From: an uncultured Eubacteriaceae bacterium | Lineage (GTDB): Bacteria; Bacillota; Clostridia; Lachnospirales; CAG-274 | Assembly (NCBI GenBank): GCA_947565475.1 | Contig: CANOGI010000001.1 | Location: forward strand, 1-40,092 | Direction: 5' to 3' | DNA length: 40,092 nt | In this document: positions 825-38,903 of the stretch, in pieces | Position numbering within the stretch: the stretch's first letter is position 1 | Layout of the letters: the number at the start of each line of letters is the position of its first letter | Position numbers and translations under genes: made by a program | The notes under the pieces: model-generated | What the model was told of the DNA's origin: nothing | Database searches by the model: none | What the model saw: the letters and a program-made list of their open reading frames with translations, nothing else

Positions 825-989
825 TATAGTCAAACCGCTTGAAAAATGAATAAGTTCGGCGGCTAAAAATTATTTTTGCCACGTTAGCGTTAATCGGCAT
901 AGGTTTTAGGCTATACCCTCTTTCCTCTGCTTTGAAAAAATAATTTTTATGTAATTTATTTGTATTCTATTTCCGATTGCTTATAATTA
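825..989 (-). repeat. R-B family MITE-like element, unfilled copy (~165 bp)
   Basis: It starts TATAGTCAAACCGCTTGAAAAATGAATAAGTTCGG, matching the reverse complement of the right end at 38866-38903. The core (...GCGTTAATCGGCATAGG...) is the reverse complement of the core at 12520-12590 and 38640-38710. The far terminal repeat is degenerate. It carries no nested element. Confidence 0.6.
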
Positions 990-12398: not shown

Positions 12399-12615
12399 GG
12401 AAAAGAATAACAGGGTTATAACTATTATATTGTATACGATTAAATCGATTTGGGAAATTTTTATTTTTAAGGGACTGTCTTATAGTCAAACTACTTGAAA
12501 ATAAGCAAAAAGAGGAGAGATTAAAATTATTTTTGAAAGGCAGCGAAAAGAGAGCAAAGCTTAGAGCCTATGCCGACTGACGCTAATAAAGCCTAATAAA
12601 GCAAAAAATGATTTT

Positions 12616-12900
12616 AACTGACAGAGGAAGTCCACCGCCTTTTAAGCTGTGGACTTCCTTTTGTATTCAGGGAGAGTGTAGGCTTACTCGGAATACAAAG
12701 GTGAATACTTTCGCCGTCGGTTACGAGAATTTTTATTGTAGTGAACAAACTTAAAAAGTGCAAAAAAATATTTTACGGGCACGCAAGTGCTGCTGGTCGG
12801 CAAGCGAATCGCGCAGCAATTTGTAGGCTGTGCAAGTAAAATAATTTTTTGCTCCCTTTAAAGATTGTTCACTTTATATAAAAATTCGAGTAGTCTTGAC
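12616..12900 (+). repeat. R-A family structured element, interrupted by R-C
   Basis: AACTGACAGAGGAAGTCCACCGCC...GTGGACTTCC...TTGTATTCAGG...GAATACAAAGGTGAATACTTTCGCCGTCGGTTACGAGAATTTTT [R-C] AAAAATTCGAGTAGTCTTGAC. It is about 153 nt once the insert is removed. Confidence 0.8.
12741..12872 (+). repeat. R-C family 132-bp MITE-like element nested in the hairpin-4 loop of R-A
   Basis: Terminal inverted repeats GTGAACAAACTTAAA / TTTAAAGATTGTTCAC. The whole element is the reverse complement of 38726-38858 with high identity. Confidence 0.75.
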
Positions 12901-13307
12901 ACCGTCGAACTTGTTTATTTTTTTAGAGGTTTTACTATAGGAATACCTGTAGTTTGTTTTTTCATAATTTTTGTGTATTTCGCCTTTGAAAAAGTAAAAA
13001 TAGATAAAAAAATTTTTTTGCGCGTTTTTAATAATCAGAGAGAACTTCAGATATGTTGTATTTTAGTTTTTATAGTTATTTAACTCGTAAAAATTATTGC
13101 TGATATTCGCCTCTTTATTGAATATTTACTAAAAAAATTCGTTAAGTGTACAAATTATACAAAGGTTTCCTTATTTATTTGTTAAATTAATATATGGTTT
13201 ATTTTCTCTAAATAATGTATTATTATATATATGATAAATGATTTGAGTTAAGATATTTTTTAATCTTGAATCTAAAATCTATATGATTTTAAGGAGGATT
13301 TTTATAA

Positions 13308-14420: not shown

Positions 14421-14433
14421 TAACTAATGTTTT

Positions 14434-14580
14434 AGACTGACGAAGGAAGTTCACCGCTTCTTAAGCGGGGTACTTCCTTTTTTATTCAGTGGAGTGTAAG
14501 CTACTAACTAATACAAAGATGGAGTTATCCAACGTAGGTTATTCGTATTTCCGTGAAATAAAAATACGAATAGTATTAAA
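14434..14580 (+). repeat. R-A family, divergent subfamily copy
   Basis: It begins 14 nt after the ABC ATPase stop: AGACTGACGAAGGAAGTTCACCGC...GCGGGGTACTTCC...TTATTCAGTGGAGTG...AATACAAAG. Hairpin 4 is replaced by ATTCGTATTT...AAATACGAAT, a different sequence with the same pairing. Confidence 0.7.
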
Positions 14581-14697: not shown

Positions 14698-14811
14698 TAT
14701 ATAAAGTCGGGCTGTAGGCAAAAAAGAGCCGTTTTCTACTCGATTATATATATAAGAAATGAAAGTTTATGGACAATCAATTTGAGAAGAAGCGGAAGTA
14801 AGATTTTATTT

Positions 14812-14927
14812 TATAGTCAACAAACTTAAAAACAAACAAATTATATAGACGGCATAGCCTCTATACAGGTGGTGAAAAAGATTTTTGCTTTGTCTATTTT
14901 TGTTGCTTTTCAAGTTTGTTGACTATA
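14812..14927. repeat. R-B-like variant element bounded by inverted repeats
   Basis: TATAGTCAACAAACTTAAAAACAAACAAA...TTTGTTGCTTTTCAAGTTTGTTGACTATA gives terminal inverted repeats of about 26/29 matches. The flanks are also inverted (ATTTTATTTTA / TAAAATAAAT). It ends 34 nt upstream of the ATG at 14961. Confidence 0.6.
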
Positions 14928-14960
14928 AAATAAATTTATTGCTTTGGAAAGGATAATATT

Positions 14961-15744: not shown

Positions 15745-15998
15745 AACTGACTAAGTAGTCCCATACGCACTAACTTAAAGATTGTGGAACGCTGCCTAAC
15801 ACCCTGTAAGCCTTTTTGAAAAAAGGTTCAGCACTTTTGGCCGTGCCGAAAGCCTAAGTTTTTTAAGTTAGTGTATATACTGATAAGTCCCCGTTTTTTA
15901 AGCGAGGGGGATTTACTCTTGTTATTCAGCGGGAGTATAAGCTTATGCATAATACAAAGGTGGAGTTATCAATAGAACATTTTGTAATAGTCTTTGAC
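15745..15998 (+). repeat. R-A family (divergent subfamily), split by R-D
   Basis: AACTGACTAAGTAGTCCC [R-D] ACTGATAAGTCCCCG...CGAGGGGGAT...GTTATTCAGCGGGAGT...AATACAAAGGTGGAGTTATC...TAGTCTTTGAC. The 5' 14-17 nt are repeated on both sides of the insert. Confidence 0.65.
15768..15873. repeat. R-D family 106-bp MITE-like element nested in R-A
   Basis: Perfect terminal inverted repeats CACTAACTTAAA / TTTAAGTTAGTG. The interior (GGAACGCTG..ACACCC.GTAAGCCTTTT.AAAAGG) matches 18150-18200. Confidence 0.7.
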
Positions 15999-18130: not shown

Positions 18131-18131
18131 G

Positions 18132-18393
18132 TACCAACTTAAAAGATTAAAACCGTGGGACGCTGTCCCACACCCCGCAAGCCTTTGAAAAGGCTTGACC
18201 TAAACTTTATAACGCAAAGCTTTTGCTTTGCTGAATTTTGGAAAACGAAGTTTTTCGCAAAAGTTTTTGGCTTCTTTTTTCAATAGGGCTACAAAGAAGT
18301 GCGGGCGGCGTAAGCCGACTTTTGGCAAAGCCAAAAGCACTGAACAAAGAAGTCGGGTTTGGGCTGAAAGCCCAAGTTTTTTTTAAGTTAGTG
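18132..18393. repeat. R-D family, long copy with extra internal material
   Basis: Ends TACCAACTTAAAAGATT...TTTTTTTTAAGTTAGTG, with flanking interior matching 15768-15873. About 155 bp of extra internal sequence includes an R-F-like segment (about 18296-18350). Confidence 0.6.
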
Positions 18394-18424
18394 CCTATGA
18401 GGTAAAAAGCAAAGTTTCTTGGGA

Positions 18425-18508
18425 GTCAAGACTACTCGAATTTTTGTAACCGACGGCGAAAGTATTCACCTTTGTATTCAGGGTGAGTATGTACTCCCTC
18501 TGTCGGTT
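18425..18508 (-). repeat. R-A family, internally deleted copy (only minus-strand copy)
   Basis: The reverse complement reads AACCGACAGAGGGAGTACATACTCACCCTGAATACAAAGGTGAATACTTTCGCCGTCGGTTACAAAAATTCGAGTAGTCTTGAC. Hairpin 2 and one arm of hairpin 4 are missing. Confidence 0.7.
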
Positions 18509-18522
18509 AAAAAAGCTTTGTC

Positions 18523-18610
18523 ATAGTCAAACTACTTGAAAATAACCAAAATGAGGCGAAATTAATTTTAATTTCGCCTCATTTTGGTTATTTTCAAGTA
18601 GTTTGACTAT
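18523..18610. terminator. 88-bp perfect palindrome built from two R-B left ends; probable bidirectional terminator
   Basis: The 43-nt arm ATAGTCAAACTACTTGAAAATAACCAAAATGAGGCGAAATTAA, 2-nt centre TT, and an exact reverse-complement arm. It ends 5 nt before the stop codon (18616-18618) of the minus-strand GH18 gene and lies downstream of proC. Confidence 0.6.
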
Positions 18611-18615
18611 ATTGA

Positions 18616-20605: not shown

Positions 20606-20804
20606 AACCGACAGAGGAAGTCACCTGCTTATTAAGCGGGGGAACTTACTCTTGTATTAAAAGGAGTGCAAGCCAGGTTGCAAGGGCAAGCAGTAAAATG
20701 AAGTTTTGCGACCAGCCCCACACTGAATACAAAGGCGAATACTTTCGCCGTCGGTTACGAGAATTTTTGCTATTTTGTTATATGAAAATTCGAGTAGTCT
20801 TGAC
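20606..20804 (+). repeat. R-A family copy inside the rpoB leader (199 bp, enlarged hairpin-3 loop)
   Basis: AACCGACAGAGGAAGTCACCTGC...GCGGGGGAACTTAC...CTTGTATTAAAAGGAGTGCAAGCC[~45 nt extra]CTGAATACAAAGGCGAATACTTTCGCCGTCGGTTACGAGAATTTTTG...AAAATTCGAGTAGTCTTGAC. Hairpin 2 carries mismatches compared with other copies. Confidence 0.8.
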
Positions 20805-20871: not shown

Positions 20872-23800
20872 ATGGAGAAAAACAGAATACGCCCCGTCAA
20901 GCTTGGCGACGTGGTTCGTATGAGTTATTCGAGGATAGACGAAGTTTTGGAGATGCCTAATCTGCTCGCTTTGCAGAAGGACAGCTATAAGTGGTTCTTG
21001 GAGGAAGGCCTCAAGGAGGTTTTTGAGGATATTTCCCCTATATGTGATTACAGCGGAAATCTTGTTCTTGAATTCACGGATTTTACTTTTGATTCCGAAC
21101 CTAAATATGACATTCCCGAATGTAAAGAACGTGACGCGACTTACGCGGCGCCTTTTAAAGTAAAAGCGCGCCTTAGAAACAAGGAAATCGACGAGATTAA
21201 AGAACAGGAAATTTTTATGGGGGATTTTCCTCTGATGACGGATACTGGAACTTTTGTTATTAACGGCGCCGAGCGTGTTATTGTAAGTCAGCTTGTTCGT
21301 TCTCCCGGTATTTATTACGCTATTGAGAAAGACAAAGTCGGCAAAAATCTTTTAAGCTCCACCGTTATCCCGAACAGAGGCGCTTGGATTGAGTATGAGA
21401 CAGACTCTAACGATGTGTTTTACGTAAGAGTCGATAGAACGAGAAAGGTTCCTGTTACGGTTTTAATACGCTCCTTGGGAATCGGAACCGATGAAGAAAT
21501 TCTTGAGCTTTTCGGAAATGAGCCAAAAATGTCGGCGACTATTGAAAAGGACACGACAAAAACAAAAGAAGAAGGACTCATCGAGATTTATAAGAAAATA
21601 AGACCAGGGGAACCTCCTACTGTCGATAGTTCTGAAACCTTACTTAATAATATGTTTTACGACCCTAAAAGATACGATTTAGCTAAAGTGGGACGATATA
21701 AATTTAACAAAAAGCTCGCTTTTAGAAACCGTGTCAGAGGCTATAAACTTGCCGAAAACGTGGTGGATCCGTCGACAGGAGAGGTCATTGCCGAGAAAGA
21801 TACGAAAATTACCGCGGAGATAGCGGATTCTATCCAAAATACGGGTGTACCTTATATTTGGGTTGTCGTAGGGGAAGTGAACGAGGAGAGAAACGTCAAG
21901 GTTTTGTCAAATCTTACAGTTTCTATAGACGAGTATATAAAGCCTTACGGTCTTACCGCGAAAGAGCTTAAAATTAAAGAAAAAGTTTATTATCCGGCTC
22001 TTATGGAGATAATTTCATCAAGCGACGGCAAAGAGGAAATTAAGGCCTCTATTTTAAATAATATTACAAAGCTTATTCCAAAACATATTACCCTTGAGGA
22101 TATTATGGCGTCGATAAACTATGTTATGCATCTCGACTACGGTATCGGAAACAAAGATGACATCGACCATCTAGGAAACAGACGTATTAGAGCCGTTGGC
22201 GAGCTTTTGCAAAATCAGTTCAGGATAGGTCTCTCAAGAATGGAAAGAGTTGTACGTGAGAGAATGACTATTCAGGATATGGACGCTATCACTCCTCAGG
22301 CTTTAATAAATATTAAACCTGTTACAGCCGCTATTAAAGAGTTTTTCGGAAGTTCTCAGCTTTCACAGTTTATGGACCAGAACAACCCTTTAAGTGAGAT
22401 GACCCATAAACGCCGTCTGTCAGCTTTGGGCCCCGGAGGTCTCTCAAGAGAGAGGGCCGGTTTTGAGGTTCGTGACGTTCACTCTTCCCATTATGGAAGA
22501 ATGTGCCCCATAGAGACGCCGGAGGGACCTAACATCGGTCTTATTAACTCTTTGGCTACTTTCGCCAGAATAAATGAGTATGGCTTTATTGAGGCTCCTT
22601 ATCGCATTATTGACAAGACGGGGGATATTCCAAGAGTTACTGACGATTTTATTTACGTTACCGCCGACGAGGAGGAAGCGTATGTCGTAGCTCAAGCTAA
22701 TGAACCCCTTAATGAGAATGGCGAGTTTATAAACGCCAAGGTTACGGCGAGACTTGGTGAGGAAAACGTAGAGATGGACGCCAATAAAATAGACCTTATG
22801 GACGTTTCACCTAAACAGCTTGTATCGGTGGCCACAGCTCTTATTCCTTTCCTTGAGAACGACGACGTTACCCGTGCCCTTATGGGTTCCAATATGCAGC
22901 GTCAGGCGGTTCCTCTTTTGACGACGGAGGCTCCCGTGGTAGGTACAGGTATGGAACATAAAACCGCCAAAGACTCTGGTGTTGTTATTGTGGCTAAACA
23001 TTCAGGAGTTGTCGAGAAGGTTGACGCTTCAGAGATAGTTGTTTTATGTCAGAATGGTTCTAAAGACCGTTATAAGATGACTAAGTTTAAAAGAAGCAAT
23101 CAATCTAACTGTATGAATCAGAGACCGATTGTTTTTAAAGGCGACAAGGTAAAGGAAGGTCAGATTATTGCCGACGGTCCATCAACAAGAGACGGTGAGC
23201 TTGCGCTCGGTAAAAATCCTCTTATCGGGTTTATGACGTGGGAAGGCTATAATTATGAGGACGCTGTTTTGCTCAGCGAGAAACTTGTGGCCGACGACGT
23301 TTACACTTCCGTTCATATTGAGGAATATGAGGCGGAGGCGAGAGACACTAAACTCGGACAAGAGGAAATCACGAAGGATATTCCAAACGTCGGCGAGGAC
23401 GCTTTAAGAGACCTTGACGAAGAGGGTATCATAAGAGTTGGCGCTGAAGTTCAGCCAAATGATATTTTAGTCGGAAAAGTAACTCCTAAGGGAGAAACAG
23501 AGCTTACAGCGGAAGAGCGTCTTTTGCGCGCGATTTTCGGTGAGAAAGCGAGAGAGGTCAGAGATACTTCTCTGCGTGTTCCTCATGGTGAGAGCGGAAT
23601 TATTGTGGACATTAAGAAGTTTACGAGAGAAAATAACGACGAGCTCCCTCCTGGGGTTAATCAGCTTGTACGCGTTTATATAGCTCAGAAAAGAAAAATT
23701 TCTGTAGGAGATAAAATGGCGGGACGTCACGGTAACAAAGGTGTTGTTTCCCGTGTGCTTCCTGTTGAGGATATGCCGTTTTTACCTAACGGACGACCTC

Positions 23801-28388: not shown

Positions 28389-28422
28389 TTGATTTTATAA
28401 ATTTTATATAAATGACCTGCTT

Positions 28423-28570
28423 AACCGACAAGAGGAAGTCCCCCGCTTAAAAAGCTGGGGACTTCCTCTTGTATTAAGTAGGAGTGCAAGCTCCAAATTA
28501 ATATAAGGGCGAATGATTTCGTTGTTGGTTACGAGAATTTTTGTTATACAAAAATTCTCGTAGTTTTGAC
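28423..28570 (+). repeat. R-A family, canonical 148-nt copy
   Basis: It starts 35 nt after the rpoC stop. All four hairpins are intact, including a perfect hairpin 4, TACGAGAATTTTTG-TTATA-CAAAAATTCTCGTA. Tail TAGTTTTGAC. Confidence 0.85.
28431..28476 (+). terminator. rho-independent terminator for rpoC (hairpin 2 of R-A)
   Basis: AGAGGAAGTCCCC(C)GC-TTAAAAA-GC(T)GGGGACTTCCTCT forms a stem of about 15 bp, followed by the T-rich TGTATT. It also faces the convergent minus-strand gene ending at 28592. Confidence 0.65.
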
Positions 28571-28591
28571 TGAGGTGATTAGTATTAGCTA

Positions 28592-29998: not shown

Positions 29999-30331
29999 TT
30001 ATTTAATTTCGATATTGTTTTTCTTAGCGATGTCTTTTAATTTAGTGTCAAGTTCCTCGATTTTAGCGAGAGCCTCGTCTAAATCAGCGTCATCTCCTGC
30101 TGAAGCGATAGACATAAGTTCAGTAGCCTCAGTCTGAAGAGCTTTCATATCTTCCTGAAGTTTAGCCTGAGCGTCAGCGTCTAATTTTGTAGCTTCCTGA
30201 GCTATAGTTGTAGCGGAAGTCATAAATTTCTGAGCCGCAGCCTGTACGTCTTCCTCAGTAGCTCCGCCACAGCCTGTAAATAAAGAAAGTGATAAAATAG
30301 AAACACCTAAAATTGATAAAAACTTTTTCAT
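29999..30331 (-). CDS. small Ala/Glu/Lys-rich lipoprotein with the helical module
   Basis: MKKFLSILGVSILSLSLFTGC lipobox. C-terminus KLKDIAKKNNIEIK. AAGGAG sits 9 nt upstream of ATG 30331; the ATG at 30349 in the ORF track would overlap this RBS. Confidence 0.7.
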   Translation of the reverse strand: MKKFLSILGVSILSLSLFTGCGGATEEDVQAAAQKFMTSATTIAQEATKLDADAQAKLQEDMKALQTEATELMSIASAGDDADLDEALAKIEELDTKLKDIAKKNNIEIK

Positions 30332-30394
30332 TGTAATAATCTCCTTCAATAAAAAATTAAAATGTTAATAAACTGTAAATTTTATTATAAAAAA

Positions 30395-30594: not shown

Positions 30595-31560
30595 TTATAA
30601 ACTATTTAAGTTTGAGAGAGTCTGGCTCATATTCTGTACGGCGTCAAGAAGTTCTTTTTCAGAGGTTATTGGTTTTACCGTGATATGATTCTTTTTAGCG
30701 AAAGAATTAAGTTTAACGGCATATTCCCCTAACTTAGACGGATTTGTCATATTATTTGTTATATCAACGGTAAATTCTTGACAAATTGTTTTAAATTCTG
30801 TTTGAGAAGATTTGTCCAAAGATGTTATGTTATTTATTATCGCTATAAAAGGAGCGTAAAAATCGTAATACGCCTGCATTAACTCAGAGTCTTCCGCCAT
30901 ATCTGAGGTATTTTCCATATCATCAACGGAATCCATTAAATCATTTAAAGATGATATAGGTTTTACTGTTATATTATTAGCTTTCGCCACGGCGTTAAGT
31001 TTAACAGCGTATTCATTCAATTTATCCGTGTTTGCCAAGATTTTGCCGAAATCGGATAAAATTTCTTTGTAAAGACTTATGACCTCTGGCATAGAGGCTT
31101 CTTTTATAACATCGGCGTTATCTGACACGGCTATACACGGCGCGAAAAAGTCAAGATATGCTCGTTCCCATTTTTGATAGTCGAAATTTTCGTAGTCAAA
31201 GTTTTTTATAGTGTCGGTTAAGAGAGCGTCAATATCAAGATTTTCAATATCTTCTAATAAACCATCCAAATCTTTTTTCAGAGCGGAGCTATTAGTAGAA
31301 GAATTTGAGTTTGAAGTGGGATTTGAAACTGAGGAAGAATCTAAACCCGAAAGTTTGGAAGCGGGATTTGAAACTGAGGAAGAATCTAAACCCGAAAGTT
31401 TGGAAGCGTTATAAGAATTAGCGCTTTCGGAGTCTTTTACGGAAGATTCAAAAGAAGACTCCGTGGTTGTTTGTTCAGTAGTCTCATCTGAGTCCCCACA
31501 GCCTGAAAGCAAAGCGAGGGATAAAAGAGAAACTCCCAAAATCGATAAAAATTTTTTCAT
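30595..31560 (-). CDS. lipoprotein with Ser-rich linker and two tandem helical modules
   Basis: MKKFLSILGVSLLSLALLSGC lipobox, nearly the same signal peptide as the 29999 gene. Two modules end LNAVAKANNITVKP and LNSFAKKNHITVKP. GGAGG RBS. Confidence 0.75.
   Translation of the reverse strand: MKKFLSILGVSLLSLALLSGCGDSDETTEQTTTESSFESSVKDSESANSYNASKLSGLDSSSVSNPASKLSGLDSSSVSNPTSNSNSSTNSSALKKDLDGLLEDIENLDIDALLTDTIKNFDYENFDYQKWERAYLDFFAPCIAVSDNADVIKEASMPEVISLYKEILSDFGKILANTDKLNEYAVKLNAVAKANNITVKPISSLNDLMDSVDDMENTSDMAEDSELMQAYYDFYAPFIAIINNITSLDKSSQTEFKTICQEFTVDITNNMTNPSKLGEYAVKLNSFAKKNHITVKPITSEKELLDAVQNMSQTLSNLNSL
31318..31407. repeat. perfect 45-bp tandem duplication inside the lipoprotein gene
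   Basis: GGGATTTGAAACTGAGGAAGAATCTAAACCCGAAAGTTTGGAAGC occurs at 31318-31362 and again at 31363-31407. In-frame, it encodes ASKLSGLDSSSVSNP twice on the minus strand. Confidence 0.9.
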
Positions 31561-31716
31561 TGTTAAAACCTCCTTAATTTTATTTTAAAACTGTTTGAGA
31601 TTTTTCAAACAATTTTTTTATGTACTGAAGTGCCGAGAGGAAAATTGTAATCAAATTTTAAGAGCACGTAAAGCGCGCGAACGGGAAGCTAAAAGAACAG
31701 CTTTCCGCATAATTGA

Positions 31717-32811: not shown

Positions 32812-32846
32812 TTTTAATTCTCCTTGTATGATAAGTTATTTATTTT

Positions 32847-32995
32847 AACCGACAGAGGAAGTCCCCCGCTTTTTAGGCGGGGGTACTTCTTCTTGTATTC
32901 AGGAAGAGTGCAAGCTCACTTTGAATACAAAGGCGAATATTTTTGCCGTCGGTTACGAGAATTTTTGTTATACAAAAATTCGAGTAGTATTGACT
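32847..32995 (+). repeat. R-A family, canonical 149-nt copy
   Basis: AACCGACAGAGGAAGTCCCCCGC-TTTTTA-GGCGGGGGTACTTC...CTTGTATTCAGG...TTGAATACAAAGGCGAATATTTTTGCCGTCGGTTACGAGAATTTTTGTTATACAAAAATTCGAGTAGTATTGAC. It lies between two minus-strand genes. Confidence 0.85.
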
Positions 32996-34658: not shown

Positions 34659-34872
34659 ACGTATCTGAAAACTGAAATACGCGCGAGAAATTATAAAAAA
34701 GCAAAATGAATTTGAAGCGTATCATTTTATTCTTTGGATATTCAGCCTTTTTAACAATATAGAAATTCGCGAAATTTTTAATATAAAATAACATTTGACA
34801 TTATTTGGATTTATTAAAGTTTATTTGTCTATTATTTTATTGTTAGCTATATACATAGTTTTCAGATACATA
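34659..34872. repeat. R-H family 214-bp element bounded by inverted repeats
   Basis: Terminal inverted repeats ACGTATCTGAAAACT (34659-34673) / AGTTTTCAGATACAT (34858-34872). The interior shares the AAATACGCG.GAGAAATTATAAAAAAG core with 1204-1240. Confidence 0.65.
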
Positions 34873-37875: not shown

Positions 37876-38239
37876 GCGTATCTGAAAACTCTCCCTAACT
37901 GTTAAAAGTATATAAAACTTTATTTTTTTAAGATTATTTTTATTTTCTCAAAACTAAAATATACAAAAAATTATAAAAATAAACGAGATTTGACTGGCGT
38001 TTATTTTTTATTATTTCTCATACTAATCTTATAAGAGCTGTTAAGTAACAATATCTTTGCTAATTGTTATCATCTAAGTTATTTAGATGATATATTTAAA
38101 AAGTGGATATAATATATTAGGACGGTATAAAAACAAGGCGAATACTTTCACCGTCGGTTACAAGAATTTTTGCTATACAAAAATTCGAGTAGTTTTGATA
38201 AGAGATTAGTATTATGTATATTTTAGTTTTCAGGTACGC
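37876..38239. repeat. R-H family copy (364 bp) containing an R-A 3' fragment
   Basis: Terminal inverted repeats GCGTATCTGAAAACT (37876-37890) / AGTTTTCAGGTACGC (38225-38239). The interior is inverted relative to 34659-34872. It starts 35 nt upstream of the proS start codon. Confidence 0.6.
38124..38198 (+). repeat. R-A family, 3' half only
   Basis: ...ACAAGGCGAATACTTTCACCGTCGGTTACAAGAATTTTTGCTATACAAAAATTCGAGTAGTTTTGA. Hairpins 1-3 are absent. Confidence 0.7.
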
Positions 38240-38598: not shown

Positions 38599-38903
38599 TA
38601 TAGTCAAACTATTTGAAAATAAATAGAATGTGGAGATATTAAAATTATTTTCGCGAGGCAGTGGAATAAGAGTATAGTTTAATGCCTATGCCGACTGACG
38701 TTAATGTGGTAAAAAGGATTTTAAAGTGAACAAATTTTAAAGGAAGCGAAAAGGTTATTTTACTTGCACGGCCCGCAAATTGCTGTATAATTAGCTTACC
38801 GACTAACAGCACTTGCGTGCCCGTAAAATATTTTTTCGCACTTTTTAAGCTTGCTCGCTTTAAAACACCGAACTTGTTTATTTTTCAAGCGGTTTGATTA
38901 TAT
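38599..38903 (+). repeat. R-B family element with nested R-C (305 bp)
   Basis: Left end TATAGTCAAACTATTTGAAAATAAATAG, right end CTTGTTTATTTTTCAAGCGGTTTGATTATA (inverted repeats). The core matches 12520-12600. R-C occupies 38726-38858. Confidence 0.75.
38726..38858 (-). repeat. R-C family copy, inverted relative to 12741-12872
   Basis: GTGAACAAATTTTAAAGGAAGCGAAAAGGTTATTTTACTTGCACGGCCCGCAAATTGCTG...GCACTTGCGTGCCCGTAAAATATTTTTTCGCACTTTTTAAGCTTGCTCGC aligns end to end with the reverse complement of 12741-12872. Confidence 0.75.

Follow-up and report, generated by a model that had tools for sequence, protein, structure and literature searches.

How did three different non-coding repeats come to lie one within another in a single intergenic region, and by what rules did each of them get there? 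The question is raised by a 459-bp block at positions 12481-12939 of a 40,092-nt stretch of DNA (hereafter the window; GC 0.37) from an uncultured low-GC Clostridia Firmicute. Genes within the window include rpoB/rpoC, wall proteins with SLH and copper-amine-oxidase-N domains, proC and proS, and the closest named relatives of its proteins belong to metagenome-assembled genomes (MAGs) labelled Clostridiales, Eubacteriaceae or Vallitalea. The block consists of a repeat termed R-B (inverted ends TATAGTCAAAC..TTGAAAA), which encloses a second repeat, R-A (12618-12900), which in turn encloses a third, R-C (12741-12873), placed in the loop of the fourth hairpin of R-A. We consider it likely, at a probability of about 0.8, that three distinct non-autonomous mobile elements entered a single intergenic region one after another and that the block is the record of these events.

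The nested block and its unfilled counterparts

Read along the plus strand, the block opens with the left part of R-B copy 1 (12481-12617), which extends from the left inverted end TATAGTCAAACTACTTGAAAA through an internal TTTAA (12613-12617), the target of R-A. This is followed by the 5' part of R-A (12618-12740), comprising the closing stem, hairpins 1-3 and the 5' arm of hairpin 4, whose last bases, TTGTA (12736-12740), are the left copy of the R-C target duplication. R-C itself occupies 133 bp (12741-12873), has the inverted ends GTGAACAAACTTAAAAAG / CTTTAAAGATTGTTCAC and forms one long hairpin (z -6.5). The 3' part of R-A (12874-12900) then begins with TTATA (12874-12878), the right copy of the duplication, and continues with the 3' arm of hairpin 4 up to the end ...GTAGTCTTGAC, after which the right part of R-B (12901-12939) closes the block with the right inverted end ...GGTTTTACTATA. 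The full 459 nt fold as nested helices (z -9). The coordinates that the initial annotation had given for the nest as a whole stand, and its internal borders are refined to those above and, for a second R-C, to 38725-38858.

The three-level nesting is borne out by a repeat finder and a self-BLAST of the window, run with the low-complexity filter off, and by excision alignments. The left arm of R-B (12481-12587) matches 38599-38705 at 81% (E 7.5e-23), its right arm (12895-12939) matches 38858-38902, and a third copy (825-950) matches both of the others in reverse orientation. The two parts of R-A (12611-12740 and 12874-12900) align with the uninterrupted 32842-32995 at 85% (E 8.6e-35), the halves also matching 28420-28571, and R-C (12740-12876) aligns with 38722-38859 in reverse at 85% (E 5.8e-37). 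When R-C and one 5-bp repeat are excised in silico, the R-A at 12611 aligns end-to-end with that at 32842 at 86% identity with just 2 gap columns, neither of which falls at the excision point; similarly, the three R-B copies can be aligned from end to end at 75-80% once their inserts are taken out. By chance the window would hold the R-B end motif 0.02 times and TTTAACYGAC 0.29 times; it holds them 7 and 5 times, respectively.

The same analysis finds filled and empty states of the internal R-B site, as had been claimed from the sequence alone. The basic R-B unit is about 160-165 bp long (165 bp when empty) and has inverted ends of ~21-25 nt. R-B copy 2 (38599-38902, plus strand) holds R-C at 38725-38858 in the opposite orientation and has no R-A, and this R-C entered copy 2 within a few bases of where R-A entered copy 1. 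R-B copy 3 (825-989, minus strand), described earlier as empty, is so at its internal site (AATTTTTAG|CC, the equivalent point reading ...AAAAATAATTTTTAG|CCGCCGAAC), but its far end (about 950-989) is degenerate; this copy is ancient and in part common to a sister species.

The ~18-nt inverted ends of R-C pair up, and the entire element is one hairpin. R-C makes a 5-bp target duplication and is not TA-duplicating, because 5-bp duplications flank both of its copies. The canonical loop of R-A hairpin 4 reads TTTTTG-TTATA-CAAAAA, with a single TTATA, and the filled one reads TTTTTA-TTGTA-[R-C]-TTATA-TAAAAA, so that the duplication is exactly 5 bp long; the closing G-C pair of the loop is changed to A-T at the filled site, a compensatory change. 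The second R-C lies between two copies of TTTAA (38720-38724 and 38859-38863), and a single TTTAA is present in R-B copies 1 and 3.

The nesting topology gives the order R-B, R-A, R-C. R-B would have landed between the yitT-like and ABC-ATPase genes, its inverted ends implying a cut-and-paste DDE transposase that acted in trans. R-A would then have entered R-B at its AT-rich centre, immediately 3' of a TTTAA that was there beforehand, and R-C would lastly have entered the TTATA loop of R-A hairpin 4, duplicating those 5 bp. The reason for the nesting may be that all three prefer short AT-rich sites (TTTAA for R-A, TTATA and TTTAA for R-C, TA-rich ones for R-B), which the loops and centres of resident hairpin elements would supply. 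An insertion in such a loop or centre would leave the helices of the host element intact and so would be neutral for whatever keeps the folds.

Presence and absence among relatives

The window is AT-rich and some of the short matches within it are weak, which could suggest that the nesting is merely an artefact of low-complexity similarity or the product of a local segmental duplication. We regard this as scarcely credible, and it is refuted on several counts: the E-values, obtained without low-complexity filtering, range from 1e-23 to 1e-37, excision yields collinear full-length alignments, the flanks of different copies are unrelated, and copies occur in other genomes and metagenomes. Moreover, the nest recurs unchanged in independent assemblies of the species from other samples (98-99% identity), one of which (L031) has 0 differences across 12399-13307.

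A scan of 185,579 species genomes with the R-A core pattern recovered five contigs of one MAG (CAMTZM01, 'uncultured Eubacteriaceae'), which carries six R-A copies at 75-81% identity and, at one locus, an R-D copy as well (R-D being a further repeat family treated below). R-B is present in four copies in the window and also at L088, at a locus of a farther relative (L069) and on six metagenome contigs. Viral contigs gave two matches for each of the R-A and R-B patterns, those to R-A being only a 30-nt similarity and those to R-B being without a second end. R-A and the whole nest had 0 matches in a plasmid collection.

The most direct comparison is with a sister species of ~90% nucleotide identity, the syntenic loci of which (L073, L074, L079, L080, L081 and L088) were reached through protein look-ups. 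It is without the R-A copies at 20608-20804 and 14426, the whole R-B/R-A/R-C nest, the R-B-like element R-E, the R-D that splits the R-A at 15745, and everything at 18131-18590; this pattern is seen in L073, and L074, L079 and L080 have the same intergenic spacing. Over 20 kb in which the window has five R-A copies the sister species has two decayed ones, and it has an R-A and a 50-bp R-E-type element of its own at sites that are empty in the window. Since the sister species is without most of the copies at orthologous sites, those of the window are true insertions that accumulated recently in this lineage, and because each of the two lineages has copies where the other has none, insertions went on independently in both. 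Thus, comparison with relatives uncovers presence/absence polymorphism, and the families are dispersed and mobile rather than locally duplicated, as the initial annotation had held: R-A recurs in another MAG, R-B-type elements recur in unrelated metagenomes, and the sister species has the absences just described. Many assemblies of this species break at shared points within the repeats, at 18162 in six and at about 38192 in five.

The R-A element and its TTTAA junction

R-A is the most interesting component of the nest, combining a TTTAA-specific, duplication-free junction with a covarying four-way junction. It is ~150 nt long and is composed of a closing stem (TAACCGAC/GTCGGTTA), three hairpins, a fourth (3') hairpin and then ~10 nt ending in TTGAC. 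The uninterrupted reference copy (32849-32995, plus strand, with TTTAA before it at 32844-32848) folds into a four-way junction plus the 3' hairpin at -69.9 kcal/mol (z -10), against -56.2 for the complement. Among eight full copies, drawn from two genera, pairing extends to 92% of cells, and 14 of the 50 pairs show compensatory double changes, as against 6.5+-1.8 in shuffles (0/500 reach the observed number) and 1-3 in slid controls. The structure is strand-specific, because G.T pairs exceed A.C mismatches (26 vs 9, p 0.006, the cells not being independent) and the plus strand folds better. The element is also modular, with natural variants in which hairpin 1 is missing (18422 and L016b), hairpins 1 and 2 are missing (L023) or only the core is left (L081).

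The ends of R-A (CCGAC... / ...CTTGAC) are not inverted repeats of each other, and terminal inverted repeats are absent. One of its two clean empty sites has the sequence GCGTTTAA|CGTTTTG in the sister species, as against GCGTTTAA[CCGACAG...GTCTTGAC]CGCTTTG in the window; TTTAA pre-exists and nothing is duplicated. A second empty site, that of the copy at 14426, reads TTTTAA|ATAG in the sister species, again with no duplication; an 8-nt direct repeat around this copy, TAATGTTT, was considered as a duplication and rejected, as both of its halves pre-exist in the empty site. The R-A inside R-B gives the same picture, with GATTTTAA[CTGAC...TTGAC]ACCG in copy 1 against GATTTTAAAACACCG in R-B copy 2. 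TTTAA stands directly 5' of 13 of the 16 R-A copies, hairpin 1 begins ~6 nt from the left boundary and hairpin 4 stops ~10 nt from the right one. Hence, R-A, with no terminal inverted repeats, no target duplication and a junction 3' of TTTAA, is not a MITE (miniature inverted-repeat transposable element).

What kind of element is it then? Single-strand transposition is established for the IS200/IS605 type, which also has gene-less derivatives, the palindrome-associated transposable elements or PATEs (PMC10055086, Meers et al. 2023), and TTTAA is a documented target motif of the IS605 family, being the transposon-associated motif of ISAam1 (PMC11224200), and so shared with R-A. R-A further resembles these elements in having no terminal inverted repeats and no target duplication, in its insertion 3' of a fixed 5-nt motif, in having its subterminal hairpins on a single strand, the right one ~10 nt short of the boundary, and in its strand-specific structure. 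It thus behaves like a PATE-like 'peel-and-paste' element that a tyrosine HUH transposase would move in trans, an assignment that we infer tentatively and hold at somewhat short of even odds. A central four-way junction has not been described for IS200/IS605 ends, and, unlike IS200/IS605 elements, R-A has no tnpA or tnpB partner in the loci retrieved. It matched none of the Rfam 15 covariance models at the gathering threshold or at E<=1, and hence no omega-RNA model held there, and comparison by eye with the right-end RNA (reRNA) scaffold of ISAam1 gave no obvious likeness beyond the ...(T/G)(C/A)AC terminus.

Several points weigh against this assignment or against the insertion scheme at large. 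IS608-type elements have similar hairpins at both ends, recognised by one TnpA, and in the IS200/IS605 type a guide segment lies 5' of the foot of either hairpin. Hairpin 1 (left) and hairpin 4 (right) of R-A, however, share no sequence, and the sole segment complementary to the TTTAA-proximal bases (GTCGGTTA) is beside hairpin 4, on the right and not the left. The evidence from orientation is confounded: 12 of 14 R-A copies point the same way as the gene upstream of them, the G-rich strand carries 7 of the 8 window copies, and replication strand and transcription direction are inseparable as the cause. At the site orthologous to the reference copy at 32849-32995 (L081 reverse, about 14850-14905) the sister species has a ~45-nt mini R-A, made up of the closing stem and hairpin 3. 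Because that site holds a mini R-A and not an empty site, R-A copies change size by whole hairpin modules, and some differences between copies stem from internal deletion or conversion, or from the loss or gain of hairpin modules, and not from transposition alone. Only two R-C copies were seen, so its 5-bp duplication rests on n = 2. Finally, since neither the window nor ~0.5 Mb of related loci nor the surroundings of any matching end yielded a transposase of any kind, every mobilisation mechanism proposed here for R-A, R-B and R-C is inferred.

A different view of R-A is that it is primarily a structured RNA module selected by the host, for example a 3'-UTR (untranslated region) stabiliser, an attenuator or a multicopy small RNA, the copies of which are kept for their function, with the nest being incidental. 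The copies co-oriented with their upstream gene lie 6-105 nt downstream of it, compensatory changes preserve the structure from one genus to another, the sense strand favours G.U pairs, and the family persists in a MAG at only 75-81% identity; furthermore, BOX, ERIC and Correia elements affect transcripts (PMC3049150). Yet R-A matches no Rfam family, its sense strand has no intrinsic-terminator signature, and two copies in the window run antisense to the genes on either side. Sister species differ by gains and losses of copies at non-orthologous sites, copies tolerate insertions of 44-133 bp and the loss of whole hairpins, and the strict TTTAA junction would go unexplained. We therefore judge a primarily host-selected R-A unlikely, and a function in RNA would in any case be compatible with, and not exclusive of, a mobile origin.

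Other candidates were rejected on reading the sequence and on the Rfam result: an integron attC (no GTTRRRY core), a hammerhead-like ribozyme (no CUGANGA/GAAA core), a retron RNA (no single-copy reverse-transcriptase context) and a group II intron fragment (wrong size). A scan of the whole window with Rfam 15 at the gathering threshold returned 0 families, and it holds 0 tRNA or tmRNA genes.

Returning to R-A as a mobile element, there is an outside chance that it represents an undescribed family, that is, TTTAA-targeting, duplication-free, strand-specific mobile elements of uncultured Clostridia with a functional four-way junction in RNA or single-stranded DNA. One possibility under this reading is that a gene-less IS605-type element encodes an omega/reRNA-like guide scaffold for a TnpB-type nuclease acting in trans, the DNA after ...CTTGAC serving as the guide; another is that it has a new end architecture recognised by an HUH enzyme. 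Should R-A prove to derive from the IS605 type and to have a new end structure, it might lead to the transposase and nuclease that partner it.

Of the remaining R-A copies of the window, all but one are on the plus strand. Just downstream of rpoC is a further uninterrupted copy (28420-28571), the similarity to which runs ~28 nt further 3'. The copy upstream of rpoB (20608-20804), which has the clean empty site GCGTTTAA|CGTTTTG described above, carries extra sequence in the loops of hairpins 2 and 4, namely 44 extra nt in the former and 8 in the latter (20640-20700 and 20765-20775). The rpoB open reading frame (ORF) is called from 20698 (1375 aa), as this R-A copy is open in frame. Because the RpoB proteins of relatives have 1317-1318 aa, the true start is near 20872, and R-A creates a false N-terminal extension of 58 codons. 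The case of yitT is similar, with an ORF of 310 aa for a real protein of 284 aa.

A divergent copy (14426-14580) directly follows the ABC ATPase gene, and another (15745-15998) is split by R-D and uninterrupted in its sister orthologue. The minus-strand copy (18422-18512) is a short variant without hairpin 1 and half of hairpin 4; in the strain contig L031 (98.8% identity) 17 extra nt at 18445 restore the missing arm and loop of hairpin 4, an indel polymorphism of a hairpin arm within the species. The initial annotation had also noted an R-A 3' half inside a repeat that it called R-H, and this is confirmed at 38135-38198, where hairpins 3 and 4 are present.

Inverted-repeat families and known counterparts

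The initial annotation had tentatively read the TA at the R-B ends as a sign of IS630/Tc1-mariner-type MITEs. Extended to all the families, R-B above all, each of which would duplicate TA and owe its movement to an IS630-family DDE transposase, this reading breaks down for two of the three members of the nest: R-A has neither inverted ends nor a duplication, and R-C, in spite of the AACTTAAAAA end motif that it has in common with R-B and R-E, makes a 5-bp duplication. For R-B itself the borders speak in its favour. Nearly all R-B/R-E-type copies have TA before TAGTC and after GACTA, among them those of the window at 825, 12481, 38599 and 14812, both ends of the six metagenome elements and L069, and no other flanking duplication is visible. 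However, the TA is inseparable from the inverted repeat itself, and TATA could be its outermost part. One end of the copy at 18522 reads CA and not TA, and no clean empty R-B site was found at the four loci tried (12481 against L073 and the farther relatives L068 and L069; 38599 against L081 and the farther L086; 18522 against L073; 825 against L088), all of which are rearranged or already occupied in the relative. No IS630-like gene or transposase lies beside the R-B end matches at 19 metagenome and 2 viral loci. On balance, the IS630-type reading strikes us as doubtful.

Of the 19 metagenome loci found with the R-B end, six hold complete elements of 160-335 bp, with the same inverted ends and different, GC-richer interiors, and the rest are solo ends or chance matches. 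One group of such loci lies beside frameshifted NADH-dehydrogenase genes and one upstream of pyruvate kinase. In the former, five soil-type contigs (L059, L060, L050, L051 and L065) have in common a 58-nt match to the left end of R-B beside NADH-dehydrogenase (Proton_antipo_M) frames, which are split as if by another genetic code or by frameshifts; these matches are probably organellar or unrelated.

The ends of R-B recur in two further elements of the window. R-E (14805-14934, with no strand assigned) has 36-nt inverted ends of the R-B type that contain TATAGTCAACAAACTTAAAAA, and is absent from the sister species. An R-B mini element (18522-18611, likewise unassigned) is an 88-bp palindrome formed by two perfect 43-nt copies of the left end. 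R-B, this palindrome and R-E have the common ends TATAGTCAA(C)..AACTTRAAAA, the AACTTAAA part of the R-B end is also present in R-C and R-D, and neither the R-B end sequence nor the GTSAAC..AACTTRAAAA motif of R-B, R-C and R-E was found in the literature searched. The mini element lies between convergent genes and has, on both strands, a T-rich stretch (TATTTTCAAG) after a 20-bp inner stem (18545-18588), so that from its sequence it looks like a bidirectional terminator; at this spot the sister species has only a diverged solo R-B end. MIR5565, MIR6274 and about 60 other miRNA-model matches to 18522-18611 were set aside as sub-threshold and generic to any long perfect hairpin.

R-D was correctly described earlier as lying inside the R-A at 15745 with perfect 12-nt inverted ends; its core spans 15768-15873 and its inverted ends reach about 15763-15880. 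In this region (15745-15890) R-A sequence, imperfectly duplicated over 12-16 nt (ACTGACTAAGTAGTCC / ACTGATAAGTCC), flanks it, and the uninterrupted R-A orthologue (L073, 13541-13651) has one copy of the sequence that is duplicated around R-D; this would point either to an unusually long duplication or to a different insertion mechanism. A long form of R-D (18131-18402, plus strand) is an array of short hairpins bounded by ..AACTTAAAAG / TTTTAAGTTAGTG and occurs in another MAG as well (L021, 262-475). A further family, R-F, overlaps R-H and is found in the window at 1191-1340, 34662-34706 and 37956-38020 and in the sister species at L073 10978-11230, L081 8722-8760 and L088 9792-9937, where it occupies the intergenic region in which the window has the R-B nest.

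Apart from these families, two neighbouring minus-strand genes have similar signal-peptide/lipobox-like 5' ends and upstream regions (30267-30366 vs 31496-31595, 77-82% identity), and one of them has a 45-bp tandem duplication (31310-31399). This likeness is paralogy unrelated to the mobile repeats. The earlier estimate that repeats fill most of 5.0 kb of ORF-free DNA was overstated, since 38% of it has a second copy in the window, or roughly half once the R-D copies seen only in relatives are counted.

The description of such crowding as unusual for a bacterial chromosome was likewise too strong. Small repeats inserted into one another have already been described for the pneumococcal BOX, RUP and SPRITE families (Croucher et al. 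2011, PMC3049150), and here as there the intergenic DNA of a low-GC Firmicute is crowded with several unrelated, strongly folded, non-coding families of 100-200 bp. Both BOX (modules A, B and C) and R-A (optional hairpins 1, 2 and 4) are modular. The two sets of repeats differ, however, in host clade and have no similarity in sequence. RUP is linked to IS630-Spn1, but for the families here no parent came to light, and a site-specific junction without duplication, as in R-A, has not been described for BOX, RUP or SPRITE. A three-deep nest with cross-species empty sites is also a more explicit case.

Classical bacterial MITEs with inverted ends include Nezha, Chunjie and Correia, and their presence/absence between relatives is well known (PMC3184786). 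R-B, R-C, R-E and R-D are like them in being <300 bp, non-coding, bounded by inverted repeats, multicopy and present or absent between relatives, and R-C also in its short AT-rich target duplication; they differ from them in that no parent insertion sequence was identified. The nest thus adds a further clear example, from a new host, of a phenomenon that was already known.

For the lineage itself, the repeats fragment its metagenome assemblies, with contig ends at 18162 and 38192, and create false gene starts, as at rpoB. The locus is a clean natural record of element-in-element insertion: a single genome and the comparison of sister species each show filled as well as empty states, and resident repeats serve as landing pads through their hairpin loops and AT-rich centres. 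At least two and probably three mobility rules operate side by side: junction with TTTAA and no duplication, duplication of 5 bp, and inverted repeats with TA on their flanks.

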